Shown one piece after another: positions 1-4,357 of a DNA stretch of 4,357 nt; positions within the stretch are counted from its first letter, which is position 1, and each line of letters starts with the position of its first letter. The notes under the pieces were generated by a model, which was not told the origin of the DNA, ran no database searches, and saw nothing but the letters and a program-made list of their open reading frames with translations. Location of the stretch: positions 1-4,357 of the IMG/VR virus record IMGVR_UViG_2693429733_000010, one strand, 5' to 3'. Both the position numbers and the translations under genes were made by a program. This stretch comes from a virus. Its lineage: Duplodnaviria; Heunggongvirae; Uroviricota; Caudoviricetes.

Positions 1-26
1 AAAACACTATCAATAAGTTGGAGTCA

Positions 27-140
27 TTACCATTTTTTTGCTGTAGTCCAGTAAAAACCACCTTTAATTCCCAGGCGTTTTCTTACTTTGTCATTTTTTG
101 CTTCGCAATATAGTGCAAATTCTTCTTTATCAGTGCTCAT
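27..140 (-). CDS. small hypothetical protein (37 aa), distal end of the dicB-type operon
   Basis: ATG at 140..138, TAA at 29..27, bounded upstream by an in-frame stop. Translation MSTDKEEFALYCEAKNDKVRKRLGIKGGFYWTTAKKW. A GAGG lies about 10 nt upstream of the ATG (long spacer). Below the track's apparent ~60-aa cutoff, so found by manual translation. Same strand as the upstream operon. No recognisable motif. Confidence 0.3.
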   Translation of the reverse strand: MSTDKEEFALYCEAKNDKVRKRLGIKGGFYWTTAKKW

Positions 141-233
141 TATTGATAAACCTCATCACAGATTTAAGGGTGAACAAATCTCTGCCATTGCTGACATATA
201 AGAATGAAACTGGATATTTATTACGGTGCTGTT

Positions 234-422
234 TTAAAATCCTGCCGGGATTTCGTTATCCTGGTGAATAACTTTATCGACCGGATAACAGTTGCCTGGA
301 ATTTTCTGTTCGGTTGCTGCGGCCATACATTCCTGCATTGTTCTGTGAACACTGACTGCAATATCAACTGGCTCTCCGGAAACAAGAAAAACCGTCAGAA
401 TAAGTGCAAATACTGGATTCAT
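234..422 (-). CDS. ydfD: YdfD-like small protein (62 aa) with N-terminal hydrophobic segment
   Basis: Internal ATG at 422..420 of track ORF 234..476, preceded by AAGGA with about 8 nt spacer. Its ATG overlaps the TGA of the upstream dicB ORF (ATGA, minus-strand 422..419), implying translational coupling. The N-terminus MNPVFALILTVFLVSG is a hydrophobic segment. Size and position after dicB match the Qin prophage ydfD from memory. Confidence 0.65.
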   Translation of the reverse strand: MNPVFALILTVFLVSGEPVDIAVSVHRTMQECMAAATEQKIPGNCYPVDKVIHQDNEIPAGF

Positions 423-607
423 TGTGCACATCCTTTTGGCATCAGACGTAAACGGGCCAGCATTGAAACAATGCATACTTTATTTAATAACTCCCGTTCG
501 TGTTTTCTTTTGTTAATGGCCTCTTCAGTGAATACAGGATTACTGATAGTGACACCAATTTCAAAACAACCTTCAGACGTATTAACGTTTGGTAATAACG
601 TTTTCAT
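419..607 (-). CDS. dicB: DicB cell-division inhibitor (62 aa)
   Basis: Internal ATG at 607..605 of track ORF 419..712 (the track start at 712 is a GTG). SD GAGGG sits 7 nt upstream. Product MKTLLPNVNTSEGCFEIGVTISNPVFTEEAINKRKHERELLNKVCIVSMLARLRLMPKGCAQ is 62 aa, the length of E. coli DicB, and lies immediately downstream of DicF as in the Qin dicB operon. Confidence 0.8.
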   Translation of the reverse strand: MKTLLPNVNTSEGCFEIGVTISNPVFTEEAINKRKHERELLNKVCIVSMLARLRLMPKGCAQ

Positions 608-776
608 TATCGCGCCCTCAACAATGAGTTTTGTGATGCGGTGCCTGGTGCTTCCAGGTGACGTTAACCAGTTAACAATTAACGCCGGATACAGAGAATC
701 CACCCATAACACTGTTTTCGGTTTTAACTGTTCCGCGTGCGCTCAGCCGCATTCACCACATCACAAAATTCACTTT

Positions 777-834
777 AAAAAGGGCGGCAGAGCAGTCACG
801 GAGTAAAACTGATACCGCCAAACGTCACCAGAAA
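777..834 (-). ncRNA. dicF: DicF small regulatory RNA with 3' hairpin and U-tract
   Basis: Minus-strand sequence 834->777 reads TTTCTGGTGACGTTTGGCGGTATCAGTTTTACTCCGTGACTGCTCTGCCGCCCTTTTT. This matches the E. coli DicF sequence as I recall it, including the GGCGG...CCGCC terminal stem and T5 tail. Exact ends depend on processing. Confidence 0.85.
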
Positions 835-856
835 ATTGATAACAGAGGGCGTTGCA

Positions 857-1135
857 GCGGGGTTGTCACTTAAGCGTATGGTCAACCTGACAACCCGGTG
901 TCCTCAACGGGGAAGGAATAACCCCGCCATACTTACCGCCGCGCCATTTCGCGGATTGCCACAACCGGAAGCGCACGGTCGACGAAAATTTAACGACAGA
1001 CCATTTATGAACTAACAGCCTCGCCGTGCGCTTTCGCGTTATGCCCTGACTTTTCAGGGACATATCCTTTCAGTAAACTGTCAGTGCCGGATGCTCACCC
1101 GTGTCCGGCGCACGCACTCCACCTCACCCGTGGAG
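857..1135 (-). other. GC-rich, hairpin-dense untranslated region upstream of DicF on the operon strand (candidate processing or regulatory leader)
   Basis: Six inverted repeats are readable directly: GGGTTGTCA 860-868 / TGACAACCC 888-896; CGGGG 908-912 / CCCCG 922-926; CCGCG 939-943 / CGCGG 950-954; CCCTGA 1044-1049 / TCAGGG 1054-1059; GCCGGA 1086-1091 / TCCGGC 1104-1109; CTCCAC 1117-1122 / GTGGAG 1130-1135. No ORF with a credible RBS on either strand. Strand is assigned from the operon context. Confidence 0.4.
1094..1132. repeat. direct repeat of the 10-mer CTCACCCGTG (1094-1103 and 1123-1132), each inside a hairpin loop/stem
   Basis: Exact 10/10 identity, 29 bp apart, lying 36 and 65 bp upstream of the ATG of the plus-strand ORF at 1168. 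Confidence 0.5.
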
Positions 1136-1167
1136 AACTCCTTAATTACCAACCCTCAGGAGGGTGA

Positions 1168-1401
1168 ATGTTAAAATCAACTCTTATTGCTAAATGCCTT
1201 TATCAAAATCGCATGGTAAGCAGCATTTCAATAGGCGAGTCTGCAGTTAAAAGTATTTTCGAAGAGTACTTTCCCGGGCATGATTTTAATAAATGGAATA
1301 CCAAATTACCGCCAGCAGTTTCAACGCGTATTCTGAAAGCAACTGAAAGAGCAAGTACAATTCGCGTTAACTATTTCATTAAAGATTTGTGGGATCTTTG
1401 A
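1168..1401 (+). CDS. hypothetical protein (77 aa), plus-strand gene in low-GC cassette
   Basis: Track ORF. Strong SD AGGAGGG at 1157-1163 with 4 nt spacer to ATG 1168. AT-rich coding sequence. Convergent with the 135-aa ORF and overlapping it by 23 bp at the 3' ends. No recognisable family. Confidence 0.45.
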   Translation: MLKSTLIAKCLYQNRMVSSISIGESAVKSIFEEYFPGHDFNKWNTKLPPAVSTRILKATERASTIRVNYFIKDLWDL

Positions 1402-1786
1402 TATCCACAGAGCCTAAAGTATGTGCATATGGATGTGCTATTGTGCGCCCTCGCAGATTTGCATCATTTTCTAAATTCACTGAACGAAACAGGGCATCAA
1501 CAAGGCTCTGTACAATGCAAAGGCAATCGAAGACTGTCGCTGTTTCTGTTTTGATTGATGAAAGAACATGGCCATTCACGCAAACAGAAATTACCCGTTC
1601 ATTAACATCGCTTTCCTGCTTTTGATTATCAGAACCATATAGCCCAGAAAAAGCATTGCGCACATTACGAACCATATTATCGATGGTTTCTTTTTTGGTG
1701 TATGCCGGGTCAATTTTCACCAGACTATCACCGAGAGTCGTTGCAGCAATTGTCTGGATTTCTTTTGGTAAATCTTTAAATTCCAT
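1379..1786 (-). CDS. hypothetical protein (135 aa) in the leftward operon, low-GC
   Basis: Track ORF. ATG at 1786..1784 with GAGG 6 nt upstream. Lies 22 nt downstream of the stop of the 72-aa gene, so operon context holds. No TM segment or recognisable motif. AT-rich relative to flanks. Confidence 0.6.
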   Translation of the reverse strand: MEFKDLPKEIQTIAATTLGDSLVKIDPAYTKKETIDNMVRNVRNAFSGLYGSDNQKQESDVNERVISVCVNGHVLSSIKTETATVFDCLCIVQSLVDALFRSVNLENDANLRGRTIAHPYAHTLGSVDIKDPTNL

Positions 1787-1808
1787 TATTAGCCTCGTTG
1801 GTTAACCA

Positions 1809-2027
1809 TTAACGTGGGTATGTAATCATTCTGGCAATGCTTAATGCCGCTGCTTTTTCCAGATTGGTGATATCCTGCTCCAGAGCGGACAGATTTTCAG
1901 CCTGCTTAGCCCTGGCTTCATTGGCCCATTTCAGGTCCTGCGCAGCCTTAATTTTCTGGTGCATCCACTCATAAAGTTCATCATCGGTATAGTCTGGCGC
2001 GATGATGACGGGTTCTCGTTTCTGCAT
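1809..2027 (-). CDS. small operon protein (72 aa), YdfC-like by size and position
   Basis: Track ORF. ATG at 2027..2025 with SD GAGGA about 6 nt upstream. Third gene after the 51-aa and 42-aa genes, mirroring ydfA-ydfB-ydfC (51/42/72 aa) of the Qin dicB operon. Sequence identity to YdfC is not verified. Confidence 0.6.
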   Translation of the reverse strand: MQKREPVIIAPDYTDDELYEWMHQKIKAAQDLKWANEARAKQAENLSALEQDITNLEKAAALSIARMITYPR

Positions 2028-2056
2028 ACTGATTCCTCGCGGTGCTGCTTCGCTTA

Positions 2057-2185
2057 TCAGCCGTTAGATTTTGCCGAGCTGGAAAGCGCCTGTTTAAACT
2101 CACTGAAGCTGAGAGCTTCTTCGCCTTCGGCAAGGCCTTCGAAGTATTCTTCGTAAGCCTTTTCCATGATTGTGTCGAAATCCAT
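2057..2185 (-). CDS. YdfB/YdaG-like small protein (42 aa)
   Basis: Not in the track (under 60 aa). ATG at 2185..2183 with SD AGGTGA 5 nt upstream, TGA at 2059..2057. Translation MDFDTIMEKAYEEYFEGLAEGEEALSFSEFKQALSSSAKSNG. An in-frame upstream ATG at 2227 would give a 56-aa form overlapping the preceding gene. Confidence 0.6.
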   Translation of the reverse strand: MDFDTIMEKAYEEYFEGLAEGEEALSFSEFKQALSSSAKSNG

Positions 2186-2186
2186 A

Positions 2187-2342
2187 TCACTCACCTGAGT
2201 TTCTTTCCAGCCAGCGACGGGCACCATTTTCGGTTTTAAACGTTTTGCTTTTGGTATACGTCATCGCGGTAAACGTTCCATCCTGGTTAGGGAACACGCC
2301 GCACACCAGAGATTCGTTGTTGCCAAGATCGATAGTATCCAT
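2187..2342 (-). CDS. YdfA/YdaF-like small protein (51 aa)
   Basis: Internal ATG at 2342..2340 of track ORF 2187..2423, with GAGG about 5 nt upstream. Translation MDTIDLGNNESLVCGVFPNQDGTFTAMTYTKSKTFKTENGARRWLERNSGE. First gene downstream of the pL-like promoter. Confidence 0.65.
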   Translation of the reverse strand: MDTIDLGNNESLVCGVFPNQDGTFTAMTYTKSKTFKTENGARRWLERNSGE

Positions 2343-2522
2343 GTTGACCTCATTTCCCCTTAACGCCGGGGTAGCGGAACAAAAACCTGCTGCATAGTTA
2401 TTAAAGTTGAACCCTGCCGTCATGTTCTTACGCCTCGGGCTGGCTACTTAACCCCTGACCACTGTCTGGTAACTCGAAGTATTGCCCTGCATTCTGTGGG
2501 GCGGGGTGGGTTGACGCCTGAA

Positions 2523-2551
2523 AAAATAGCATCATTATTTTTTGATGTAAA
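2523..2551 (-). promoter_or_regulatory. pL-like leftward promoter: -35 TTTACA (2551..2546), 17-nt spacer, TG-extended -10 TATTTT (2528..2523)
   Basis: Minus strand reads TTTACA-17 nt-TATTTT with TG at -15/-14. Both hexamers overlap the two OL palindromes. Predicted start near 2516, leader about 175 nt to the ydfA-like ATG. Confidence 0.5.
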
Positions 2552-2565
2552 TAGCATCGCTATTG
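2524..2565. promoter_or_regulatory. OL-like operator pair: two 17-bp palindromic sites, centres 25 bp apart
   Basis: 2549-2565 AAATAGCATCGCTATTG (core ATAGCATCGCTAT is a perfect palindrome) and 2524-2540 AAATAGCATCATTATTT (15/17 to consensus). The same core recurs at OR. Confidence 0.7.
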
Positions 2566-2581
2566 TTTTTGTTGGGGCAAG

Positions 2582-2603
2582 AAAAAACCACCCTAAGGTG
2601 GTT
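2582..2603 (-). terminator. intrinsic terminator candidate after the toxin gene
   Basis: Minus strand: stem AACCACC / GGTGGTT (plus 2586-2592 / 2597-2603), 4-nt loop, then a T-run (plus-strand A6 at 2582-2587). Sits 17 nt past the toxin stop and just before OL. The stem is short, so moderate strength at best. Confidence 0.5.
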
Positions 2604-2619
2604 CTGTCGGCGGGAATAA

Positions 2620-2910
2620 TTAACTGTTTTTGCCTGGATACTGTCTTCGAGAATGCACAATATTTACTACTTCTATGCTTGATGCTGTTACTCGGTAAAG
2701 GATGATGTAGTTAGGATGAGTTACAATTTCACGAAGACCAAGAACTCGCTCGCTTGGAGGATACAGGTAAGGATGCTCTGTGAGCGGCAAAACGGATGTT
2801 TCAATTCGAATTTTCATTCTGCGTGCTGCCGCGGGATTTTCTTTAGCTATGTAGGCTACGATCTGGCGCAAATCATCACGAGCAGATGGTAGCCATAAAA
2901 CGGGTAACAT
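2620..2910 (-). CDS. parE: type II toxin, ParE/RelE family (96 aa), parE2-like
   Basis: Track ORF. ATG overlaps the antitoxin stop by 1 nt (minus strand TAATG at 2912..2908). Product is basic, about 11 kDa, consistent with the RelE/ParE fold. Lies downstream of a small acidic antitoxin-like gene. Confidence 0.85.
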   Translation of the reverse strand: MLPVLWLPSARDDLRQIVAYIAKENPAAARRMKIRIETSVLPLTEHPYLYPPSERVLGLREIVTHPNYIILYRVTASSIEVVNIVHSRRQYPGKNS

Positions 2911-3104
2911 TATTCACCTCTGTGAGTTGCAGCAGCAATTTGGGCAATAATTTGTTCCATTTCCGCCATTACCTCATCATGCGGAATCGCCGGGCGGGGA
3001 TCCGCGAGGCTTGCTGCTACTTTGGCCCGCAGCCATTCGTTGTAACTATTTTCTTGCTCAACTGTCTCAAATTCTGAAACCATTGGGGAAAGGACTGTAC
3101 TCAT
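2910..3104 (-). CDS. type II antitoxin (64 aa), PaaA2-like
   Basis: Track ORF. ATG at 3104 with SD GAGGAG about 9 nt upstream, only 19 nt after the repressor stop. Small acidic protein MSTVLSPMVSEFETVEQENSYNEWLRAKVAASLADPRPAIPHDEVMAEMEQIIAQIAAATHRGE. Matches the PaaA2 antitoxin size of the O157:H7 paaR2-paaA2-parE2 system from memory. Confidence 0.75.
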   Translation of the reverse strand: MSTVLSPMVSEFETVEQENSYNEWLRAKVAASLADPRPAIPHDEVMAEMEQIIAQIAAATHRGE

Positions 3105-3123
3105 TTTACATATCTCCTCTGAT

Positions 3124-3624
3124 TTAGGCGCGACGGCCTTTTTGTGCAGCTAACCACCGCGCAACCGTACGATCCATTGATTCTTTTTTATCTTTCATCT
3201 CCTGAAGCATGTGTTCTTGATCTTCTTTCGGAAAAGCTCTGAACGTATGGATTAAATCTCGTTCCATCGGCTCTACGGCAAACGGTAGTTCATCCTCTGT
3301 TTGTTCTGTGTCTGCTGGTAATGCGACTATGTTATCTTGCTGTGGTTCTCGACAATACATCCTTGCAATTTGCAGCAAATCTACCATGTCTGGCCTGATT
3401 GACTCAGGGGGAACTTTCAGTAAGCCAGCAAACTTTAGAACAGCCTCAAGGTTTAGTGGGGTTTGACCATTTAGGTAGTGACTTACCGCCCCTTGTGTTG
3501 AAAACCCCATAATTTCCGCCGCACGTTCCTGAGTCAATCCCAACTGAGATTTCTTTGCCATCCAGATTTCTTTCAGTCTTCTGGCGGCGTTGAGGTCGGT
3601 GTCTGACAATGATTTTCTTTTCAT
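3124..3624 (-). CDS. cI-like HTH (XRE-family) prophage repressor, 166 aa; PaaR2/RacR-like, no S24 peptidase domain
   Basis: Track ORF 3124..3654 begins at a GTG; the first ATG is at 3624..3622 (MKRKSLSDTDL...). HTH motif LTQERAAEIMGFSTQGAVSHYLNGQ. The C-terminal ~100 aa is acidic and lacks the GDSM-type serine motif of LexA/cI peptidases. Divergent from a cro-like gene across palindromic operators. Confidence 0.85.
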   Translation of the reverse strand: MKRKSLSDTDLNAARRLKEIWMAKKSQLGLTQERAAEIMGFSTQGAVSHYLNGQTPLNLEAVLKFAGLLKVPPESIRPDMVDLLQIARMYCREPQQDNIVALPADTEQTEDELPFAVEPMERDLIHTFRAFPKEDQEHMLQEMKDKKESMDRTVARWLAAQKGRRA

Positions 3625-3657
3625 ACATCCAATTCTAATAAGATTGCTAATCACTTT

Positions 3658-3686
3658 GAAATAGCATCGCTATTTACTTTTAAAAA
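3658..3686 (-). promoter_or_regulatory. PRM-like maintenance promoter candidate: TG-extended -10 TATTTC (3663..3658), weak -35 TTTTTA (3686..3681)
   Basis: Minus strand reads gaTGcTATTTC, embedded in the OR1 palindrome, the same motif as the pL -10. The weak -35 fits an activator-dependent PRM. Leader about 27 nt to ATG 3624. Confidence 0.35.
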
Positions 3687-3700
3687 TAACAGTGCTATTA
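3659..3700. promoter_or_regulatory. OR-like operator pair: 17-bp palindromes, centres 25 bp apart
   Basis: 3659-3675 AAATAGCATCGCTATTT is a perfect 17-bp palindrome. 3684-3700 AAATAACAGTGCTATTA matches it at 13/17. Same spacing and core as the OL pair. Confidence 0.7.
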
Positions 3701-3701
3701 A
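3673..3701 (+). promoter_or_regulatory. PR-like rightward promoter candidate: -35 TTTACT (3673-3678), 17-nt spacer, -10 TATTAA (3696-3701)
   Basis: Hexamers overlap OR1 and OR2 respectively, a mirror image of the pL/OL layout. Predicted start near 3708, upstream of the cro-like ATG at 3736. Confidence 0.4.
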
Positions 3702-3735
3702 TTATGCATTGGTAACACATCACATAGGGCGGATT

Positions 3736-3999
3736 ATGAATCTTGGAGAATATTTGCATCATTTTCATATAACCCAGAGTTCATTTGCTGAGATTGTTGG
3801 CGCATCCCAAGGGATGGTCAGCCACGTTATAACGGGGCGTGCAAAACTTACAGGAGAAAAAATATTACGTTGGTGTGAAGCAACGGGATGGGTGGTGACC
3901 CCACATGAGATTGACAGTAAAACCTACCCCAACCCAACTGACGGCTTGCCTGCTGAGTTTCAGGCTAACACACAACCATCGGCGGGGGTTGATTCATGA
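3736..3999 (+). CDS. Cro/YdaS-like small HTH regulator (87 aa)
   Basis: Track ORF 3709..3999 starts at a TTG; the first ATG is at 3736, preceded by GGG/GGCGG. HTH motif QSSFAEIVGASQGMVSHVITGR. Divergent from the repressor across OR. Confidence 0.8.
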   Translation: MNLGEYLHHFHITQSSFAEIVGASQGMVSHVITGRAKLTGEKILRWCEATGWVVTPHEIDSKTYPNPTDGLPAEFQANTQPSAGVDS

Positions 4000-4357
4000 A
4001 AATCAAGCATGAACACATCCGCATGGCGATGAAAGCCTGGGCGCATCCGGACGGTGAAAAAGTTCCGGCAGCTGAAATAACCAGGGTTTATTTCGAACTG
4101 GGAATGACGTTTCCGGTTCTGCATAACGACAGCAAGCACAACACGCTTTATCTCAACACCCAAAAGATTTTCCGTTGGCTGGATAAAGACACCCCTGACG
4201 CTGTTGAAAAAATTCAGGCGTTGTTACCTGCGATCGAAAGGGCAATGCCACCTCCGCTGGTGGCTCGAATGCGCAGCCACAGTTCAGCTTATTTTCGGGA
4301 ACTGGTGGAGACGCATGAACGACTGGTGAGAGACGCTGATGATTTTGTCGCAGTGGC
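3996..4357 (+). CDS. YdaT-like protein (proposed CII-like role), 5' partial, runs off window end
   Basis: ATG at 3996 overlaps the cro-like TGA (ATGA coupling). Open frame for 120 codons to the window end (MKIKHEHIRMAMKAWAHPDGEKVPAAEIT...). Absent from the track because no stop falls in the window. Position after the cro-like gene matches ydaS-ydaT. Confidence 0.7.
   Translation, partial: MKIKHEHIRMAMKAWAHPDGEKVPAAEITRVYFELGMTFPVLHNDSKHNTLYLNTQKIFRWLDKDTPDAVEKIQALLPAIERAMPPPLVARMRSHSSAYFRELVETHERLVRDADDFVAV

Follow-up and report, generated by a model that had tools for sequence, protein, structure and literature searches.

Four 17-bp dyads predicted to be repressor/Cro operators in a PaaA-ParE immunity cassette of an E. 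coli lambdoid prophage

The closest experimentally described relative of the locus reported here is the immunity region of the E. coli O157:H7 prophage CP-933P (Sp12), which comprises paaR2-paaA2-parE2 and ydaS-ydaT and has been studied by Hallez 2010 and in PMC8630535 and PMC9986795. In this prophage the repressor PaaR2 and YdaS footprint a 97-bp intergenic region (Jurenas et al. 2021, PMC8630535), and each of them represses PR as well as PL, which lies beyond parE2 and features similar operators (PMC8630535). The same work found that the repressor maintenance promoter (PRM) is activated by low PaaR2, that a promoter resembling the repressor establishment promoter (PRE) is activated by YdaT, that paaR2 is leaderless by 5′ RACE (rapid amplification of cDNA ends) and N-terminal sequencing, that PaaR2 octamerises and that the locus is bistable (PMC8630535). 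Here we describe a stretch of 4,357 nucleotides (the window; positions 1 to 4,357 of the IMG/VR record IMGVR_UViG_2693429733_000010), which represents the immunity and early-left region of an E. coli lambdoid prophage, and analyze four related 17-bp dyads within it that we predict to be the operators of a sister cassette with a different, lambda-CI-like repressor.

The cassette shares its layout with CP-933P, in that a repressor-PaaA-ParE operon runs leftward and genes of the YdaS-YdaT type run rightward, with a terminator and then a leftward promoter (pL) driving the ydfA and dicB side. On the minus strand are the genes for a 166-aa immunity repressor of the HTH_3 family (3124-3624), with similarity to the lambda repressor N-terminal domain and a PaaR2-like C-terminus, for a 64-aa antitoxin of the PaaA family (2910-3104; PF21217, 3e-23; PaaA2 structure 3zbe, 1.4e-23) and for a 96-aa toxin of the ParE family (2620-2910; PF05016, 1.8e-17; ParE2 structure 5cw7, 6.7e-37). 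The order regulator-PaaA-ParE matches the RefSeq annotation of a 99.2%-identical locus. On the plus strand, across a 111-bp control region from the repressor gene, the first gene of the predicted rightward promoter (pR) encodes an 87-aa Cro-like helix-turn-helix (HTH) protein of the YdaS type (3736-3999; HTH_3, 4e-4, under the Pfam cut-off). Relative to CP-933P the identities are 75% for PaaA, 67% for ParE, 79% for YdaT and 52% for the C-terminal 44 aa of the repressor; the two loci also share repeats at both OR and OL over promoters with matching -35 and -10 elements, and a repressor start that is predicted to be leaderless here. Unlike PaaR2, which is 123 aa long and starts with MQKKE, the repressor of the window has 166 aa and an unrelated, lambda-CI-like N-terminal domain; the Cro-like protein likewise differs, and the operator is AAATAGC-N3-GCTATTT in place of the GTTTAGTAA consensus of CP-933P. 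Each operator here presents two clear dyads, as against four inverted repeats or three 'operators' in CP-933P.

The dyads, none of which is assigned to a strand, fall into two pairs. The left pair consists of OL1 (AAATAGCATCATTATTT; 2524-2540; 17.75 bits), over the pL -10, and OL2 (AAATAGCATCGCTATTG; 2549-2565; 20.4 bits), over the pL -35. The right pair consists of OR2 (AAATAGCATCGCTATTT, i.e., AAATAGC-ATC-GCTATTT; 3659-3675; 22.05 bits), which is the best match to the consensus, covers the pR -35 and adjoins the -35 of a predicted repressor promoter, and OR1 (AAATAACAGTGCTATTA; 3684-3700; 18.5 bits), over the pR -10. Their centres (2532 and 2557 on the left, 3667 and 3692 on the right) are 25 bp apart in either pair, and the 40-nt blocks 2525-2564 and 3660-3699 show 78% complementarity, so that the pairs are mirror images of each other. 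A preliminary description made from the sequence had listed four such sites with this arrangement and spacing on either side of a repressor-toxin operon; all four are where it placed them and far above chance, and the Pfam and structure matches identify the operon as repressor-PaaA-ParE. Its account of 3659-3675 as a perfect palindrome is right for the 7-bp arms and wrong for the 17 bp as a whole, in which the 3-bp ATC centre is non-self-complementary and three positions differ between the strands.

Three sites in the window lie within three mismatches of the best site, versus 0.02 expected, and the fourth site has four mismatches. With a symmetric weight matrix built from the four sites, in which the 3-bp centre was neutralised, they score 17.7-22.0 bits and the runner-up position in the window scores 9.7 bits; in shuffled windows the maximum score under the same matrix has a mean of 9.5 bits and a 95th percentile of 12.8. 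We found no other repeat family in the two control regions, and no third OL site on either side of OL1 and OL2.

Both pairs are superimposed on predicted promoters, one leftward and one its rightward mirror image, as the preliminary description had proposed. The predicted pL (2523-2551, minus strand) combines a -35 of TTTACA (2551-2546), a 17-bp spacer, TGC and a -10 of TATTTT (2528-2523), and scores 9/12 with the TG upstream in a consensus scan with a threshold of 9/12, for which 6.8 matches of the 9/12 type are expected by chance per window. Its start is predicted near 2516, its -35 is inside OL2 and its TGC-TATTTT is inside an arm of OL1. The predicted pR (3673-3701, plus strand) was read from the sequence as the mirror image of pL and has a -35 of TTTACT (3673-3678), a 17-bp spacer, TGC (3693-3695), a -10 of TATTAA (3696-3701) and a predicted start near 3708; this element is invariant in relatives. 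The earlier proposal that the operator core itself supplies a TGcTAT extended -10 is correct at the level of sequence for both promoters, where the TGCTAT forms part of the promoter-proximal arm of whichever site overlaps the -10, and divergent relatives keep an extended -10 in the operator arm (e.g., TGG-TATTGT in locus L002). A plus-strand promoter-like match over OL1 (2511-2538) was rejected, as it scores only 9/12, is expected by chance and is not conserved in L002.

The repressor gene is preceded by a predicted PRM-like maintenance promoter (3632-3660, minus strand; -35 TTCAAA at 3660-3655, 17-bp spacer, -10 TAGAAT at 3637-3632; 9/12), the predicted start of which is on or beside the A of the repressor ATG at 3624; the repressor mRNA would therefore be leaderless. 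Relative to this start, OR2 is centred at about -42 and a candidate weak OR3 (TAATAAGATTGCTAATC; 3636-3652, no strand) at about -20, the latter lying between the -35 and -10 with its centre 23 bp from that of OR2. The lambda OR2 and OR3 sites occupy these same positions relative to PRM. The candidate OR3 stretch is conserved save two bases and has a lambda-like geometry, its support being positional only. The repressor would control its own promoter via OR2, which has the geometry for activation, and via this weak candidate. An intrinsic terminator (2580-2605, minus strand; 9-bp stem, then UUUUUUCUU; -15.1 kcal/mol, z = -2.45), which L002 shares, closes the repressor-antitoxin-toxin transcript directly ahead of OL2.

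Conservation was assessed over 46 homologous loci with repressors 77-100% identical (L001, L002, L004 and the IMG/VR loci L127-L169). The preliminary description had named the lack of the palindromes at equivalent positions in homologous immunity regions as evidence that would speak against it; across these loci they are conserved at equivalent positions, including OL1, OL2 and OR1. A matrix scan of seven loci, two of them 13.5 kb in length, recovered in each case four sites scoring 11 bits or more and no others, in two pairs with 25-bp spacing at equivalent positions. When the 46 loci are projected on the window, hardly any change falls in the outer six bases of each arm, and the substitutions gather in the central bases; at OR2 the arms show no variation, unlike the centre. 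When the window is compared with the 77%-identical clade, with an overall DNA identity of 78.7%, 44 of the 48 arm positions (outer 6+6 bp) are identical versus 10 of the 20 positions in the central 5 bp (Fisher p = 3e-4), and the recognition helices are unchanged between the clades (STQGAVSHYLNGQ in the repressor and QGMVSHVITGR in the Cro-like protein). The separation of OL and OR is 1,123-1,135 bp across the relatives.

Positions 2450-4000 of the window are 99.2% identical to a chromosomal prophage of strain RMDEC465, and at least 80% of this segment is present in 71 of 5,426 complete E. coli genomes (~1%), including an O104:H4 strain. A search with the repressor in one genome per species gave no match. 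In a sequenced phage collection, no isolated phage carried the immunity region of the window, and the best protein match was lambda cI (31%). In IMG/VR, AAATAGC-N3-GCTATTT gave over 120 hits, single and scattered across unrelated contigs; these are what chance produces for an AT-rich 14-mer and are hence uninformative.

The repressor itself looks like a natural chimera of a lambda-CI-like N-terminal domain and a C-terminal domain of the PaaR/DicA type. Its residues 2-81 match residues 3-81 of the lambda repressor (E = 2.9e-9), with the basic N-terminal arm included, whereas its C-terminal 44 aa are 52% identical to the PaaR2 C-terminus (4e-15), the DNA-binding part of PaaR2 being without similarity. 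Residues 106-162 resemble the C-terminus of DicA (7e-8), with a score of 32.4 bits versus the DicA cut-off of 101 (NCBIfam PRK09706). As Pfam detects no S24 peptidase in the protein, its sole Pfam match being the HTH at residues 27-74, the repressor falls outside the self-cleaving CI/LexA family, though we predict it to be CI-like in its DNA reading. Like PaaR2, which is likewise not RecA-responsive in the lambda fashion (PMC8630535), it should by analogy not answer RecA in the lambda manner. An alternative GTG start at 3654, which would give a 176-aa protein, was rejected in favor of the ATG at 3624: the lambda CI homology begins at residue 2 of the 166-aa form, the RefSeq protein has 166 aa, and the longer open reading frame (ORF) would contain the predicted promoter. 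The Cro-like protein and the repressor HTH are 38% identical (5e-7), with recognition helices QGMVSH and QGAVSH, respectively, a likeness to be expected of two proteins that read one and the same half-site.

In E. coli prophages, the paaA-parE pair sits behind at least three kinds of repressor, of 166 aa, 133 aa and 123 aa. The 133-aa type in O157:H7 is probably PaaR1 of CP-933M, and the 123-aa type starting with MQKKE is PaaR2 as sequenced in PMC8630535. Across the three immunity types PaaA and ParE are 67-86% identical, and the repressors share homology over their final 44-64 residues, which are similar to the DicA C-terminus as well; the N-terminal DNA-binding parts of the repressors, the Cro-like proteins and the repeat families are all unrelated. 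From a comparison of the control regions of L003, L005 and L006, the 133-aa type displays ACAATAAAAAACTGTT inverted repeats and the PaaR2 type, seen in L006, displays TTTAGTAA/CACTAAAC, in place of the AAATAGC-N3-GCTATTT of the window. Every family occurs both at OR, in the repressor-cro interval, and at OL, beyond parE. The repeats thus differ along with the DNA-binding domains while PaaA and ParE stay similar, and therefore belong to the specificity of the repressor and Cro rather than to PaaA and ParE. The left edge of the exchanged unit is sharp: 1,930 of the 5,426 E. coli genomes share 2450-2513 (at least 93% identity) but not the sequence rightward of it, which places the cassette joint at ~2513/2514, ~10 bp left of OL1 and near the predicted start of pL. 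The pL leader is C-rich on the transcript (CCCACCCCGCCCCAC), and a permissive-threshold Rfam scan of this conserved leader gave no match. A separate locus, L171 (2321-3125; IMGVR_UViG_2778261447_000007), has tandem repressor genes ahead of paaA-parE, a PaaR2-like gene of 123 aa followed by that of another HTH repressor whose C-terminal domain is the same, and is apparently a double-immunity cassette.

Taken together, we consider it very probable that the four sites are the repressor/Cro operators (OL1, OL2, OR1 and OR2) of pL and pR. From the homology of the proteins and the experiments on CP-933P, we infer a mechanism in which dimers of the 166-aa repressor would bind each 17-bp site via two AAATAG(C) half-sites, and pairs of dimers at sites 25 bp apart would cooperate and exclude RNA polymerase from pL and pR. 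Repressor bound at OR2, centred at about -42, could activate the weak and probably leaderless promoter that drives the repressor along with PaaA-ParE. The Cro-like product of pR, with its similar recognition helix, would compete for the same sites, giving two mutually exclusive states, and YdaT would add repressor expression from a PRE-like promoter. The C-terminal domain shared with PaaR2 may bridge OL and OR in a ~1.1 kb loop. The preliminary description had proposed a bistable switch in which a single repressor controls pL, pR and its own promoter; those of its elements that can be checked in silico are borne out, and this is the model published for the sister cassette CP-933P and shown there experimentally (PMC8630535). 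It missed that precedent, the weak candidate OR3 and the Cro partner, and bistability needs the Cro-like antagonist encoded at 3736-3999.

The arrangement recalls lambda in several respects. As in lambda, pseudo-symmetric sites of 17 bp, with centres 23-25 bp apart, are mirror-oriented around the repressor operon, O1 is over the -10 and O2 over the -35 of the predicted pR and pL, OR2 is at about -42 from a weak repressor promoter predicted to be leaderless, the repressor N-terminal domain with its basic arm is homologous, and the repressor gene is followed by a 'passenger' operon without a regulatory role (rexAB in lambda, the toxin-antitoxin (TA) pair here). Unlike lambda, the locus has a different half-site sequence, a repressor without an S24 peptidase or a RecA-cleavable C-terminal domain, an unrelated protein, YdaT, in the CII role, and no N gene after pL.

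Several observations weigh against the assignment of these sites as repressor/Cro operators. There are two strong sites per operator as opposed to three in lambda, and the best-consensus sites are O2, over the -35, where in lambda they are O1; because of the latter, the filling order of the sites may differ from that in lambda. The -10 of the predicted pR, TATTAA, is without the final T, and the promoter scores 8/12, under the scan threshold. The candidate OR3 scores 7.05 bits, of which ~2.4 are expected per shuffled window, i.e., it is in the chance range, and the negative autoregulation of the repressor is consequently uncertain. The analogy to CP-933P is limited too, as the true recognition units there may be either inverted repeats or pseudosymmetric 'operators', a choice that the authors of that study could not make (PMC8630535). 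Finally, the operator strings had only unrelated 10-mer matches in the searchable literature, where we found no paper on this operator sequence or on the CI-like head.

Among the alternatives, the one that fares best, while still being improbable, is that the main or sole reader of the sites is the Cro-like YdaS protein or a host factor, and that the 166-aa protein uses other sequences. The Cro-like protein possesses an HTH and has to act within the repressor-cro interval, and the work on CP-933P did not tell the exact recognition sequences of PaaR2 from those of YdaS, both of which would accord with such a division. Yet the QG(A/M)VSH motif is common to the repressor and Cro, which argues for shared sites; the repressor carries a DNA-binding domain homologous to that of lambda CI, itself a reader of 17-bp pseudo-dyads, and the two control regions offer no second repeat family for it to read. 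We regard as more improbable still an inverted duplication of one promoter, with pL copied from pR, in which the dyads would be incidental and have no role in repression. The complementarity of the 40-nt blocks does extend throughout, including the spacer. However, each block contains two copies of the 17-bp dyad 25 bp apart, for which a promoter has no need, the arms of the dyads are kept while their centres vary freely across relatives, and the heteroimmune relatives have swapped both blocks along with the DNA-binding domains of the repressor and Cro. Least credible is that the PaaA-ParE complex, rather than the HTH protein, binds the palindromes as type II TA autoregulatory operators: the sites do flank the TA operon and, in a review on Hallez 2010 (PMC4803016), the paaR promoter is described as partly repressed by the PaaA-ParE complex, but PaaA matches only the toxin-binding PaaA2 family, of which PaaA2 is reportedly without a DNA-binding motif (PMC8630535), PaaA and ParE retain their similarity across three immunity types with unrelated repeats, and one pair of sites is beyond the operon terminator, at a promoter facing away from the operon.

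A further possibility, which we put forward tentatively and think unlikely on balance, is that the repressor is a domain swap that joins a lambda-CI-type DNA-reading head, basic N-terminal arm included, to an oligomerisation tail of the PaaR/DicA type and, given only 2+2 strong operators, acts as one octamer by which OL and OR are looped around the whole TA operon. Were this so, one DNA loop would set both the expression of the TA pair and the immunity of the prophage, and the TA pair, common to at least three interchangeable cassettes, would penalise the loss of whichever cassette carries it.

The flanking genes connect the locus to other known prophages. Rightward of the Cro-like gene is the gene for the CII analogue YdaT (3996-4357, plus strand, cut by the window end; PF06254), the identity given above being to YdaT of the PaaR2-type locus L006. 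At the ydaS/ydaT junction we found, as in CP-933P, an exact match (3989-4006, no strand) to the YdaT site TTGATT-N6-AATCAA, which was defined by footprinting (Prolic-Kalinsek et al. 2023, PMC9986795); it lies in a PRE-like region and marks a probable PRE-like promoter for establishment of the repressor. Separately, the segment 2502-2532 (CGGGGTGGGTTGACGCCTGAAAAAATAGCAT), directly leftward of OL1, shows 74% similarity to 3980-4010, around the YdaT site. Left of pL, the leftward genes are in order ydfA (DUF1391), ydfB, ydfC, the DicF RNA and dicB. The DicF antisense small RNA (782-833, minus strand; Rfam RF00039, 76.7 bits) and the ORF of the cell-division inhibitor dicB (419-607, minus strand) belong to the downstream part of the pL operon, an arrangement also seen in Qin-type prophages. 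The locus thus resembles the Qin prophage of E. coli K-12, with DicA/DicC, in having ydfA-ydfB-ydfC-DicF-dicB downstream of a leftward promoter and a repressor with a C-terminal region like that of DicA; unlike in Qin, the N-terminal domain of the repressor is different and its score is far under the cut-off of the DicA family (32 vs 101 bits). To our knowledge, Qin has no PaaA-ParE pair behind dicA. Two ORFs between ydfC and DicF, 1379-1786 (minus strand, 135 aa) and 1168-1401 (plus strand, 77 aa), have no Pfam match. The RMDEC465 prophage (99% identical) has other genes at the position of 1168-1786, including one for a Rha-family regulator; as the gene content between ydfC and DicF differs in this way, the pL operon is mosaic here.

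The novelty of the locus is in its operator sequence and the CI-like head of its repressor, which make it a new immunity (heteroimmune) variant of an already known mechanism; no new mechanism is revealed, and a specialist would not be surprised by it. It does provide a clean, previously unreported operator consensus, AAATAG[C/T]-N3-[G/A]CTATTT, for a repressor found in ~1% of complete E. coli genomes. As its dyads stand out more clearly than those of CP-933P, with its still ambiguous recognition unit, the variant could prove the easier of the two for structural and biophysical work. Together with its relatives it defines at least three heteroimmune cassettes in which one TA pair and one repressor C-terminal domain are combined with exchanged DNA-reading heads and operators. 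Such cassette swapping constitutes a natural experiment on the evolution of immunity specificity and bears on the TA pair as a stabilising element of the immunity region.

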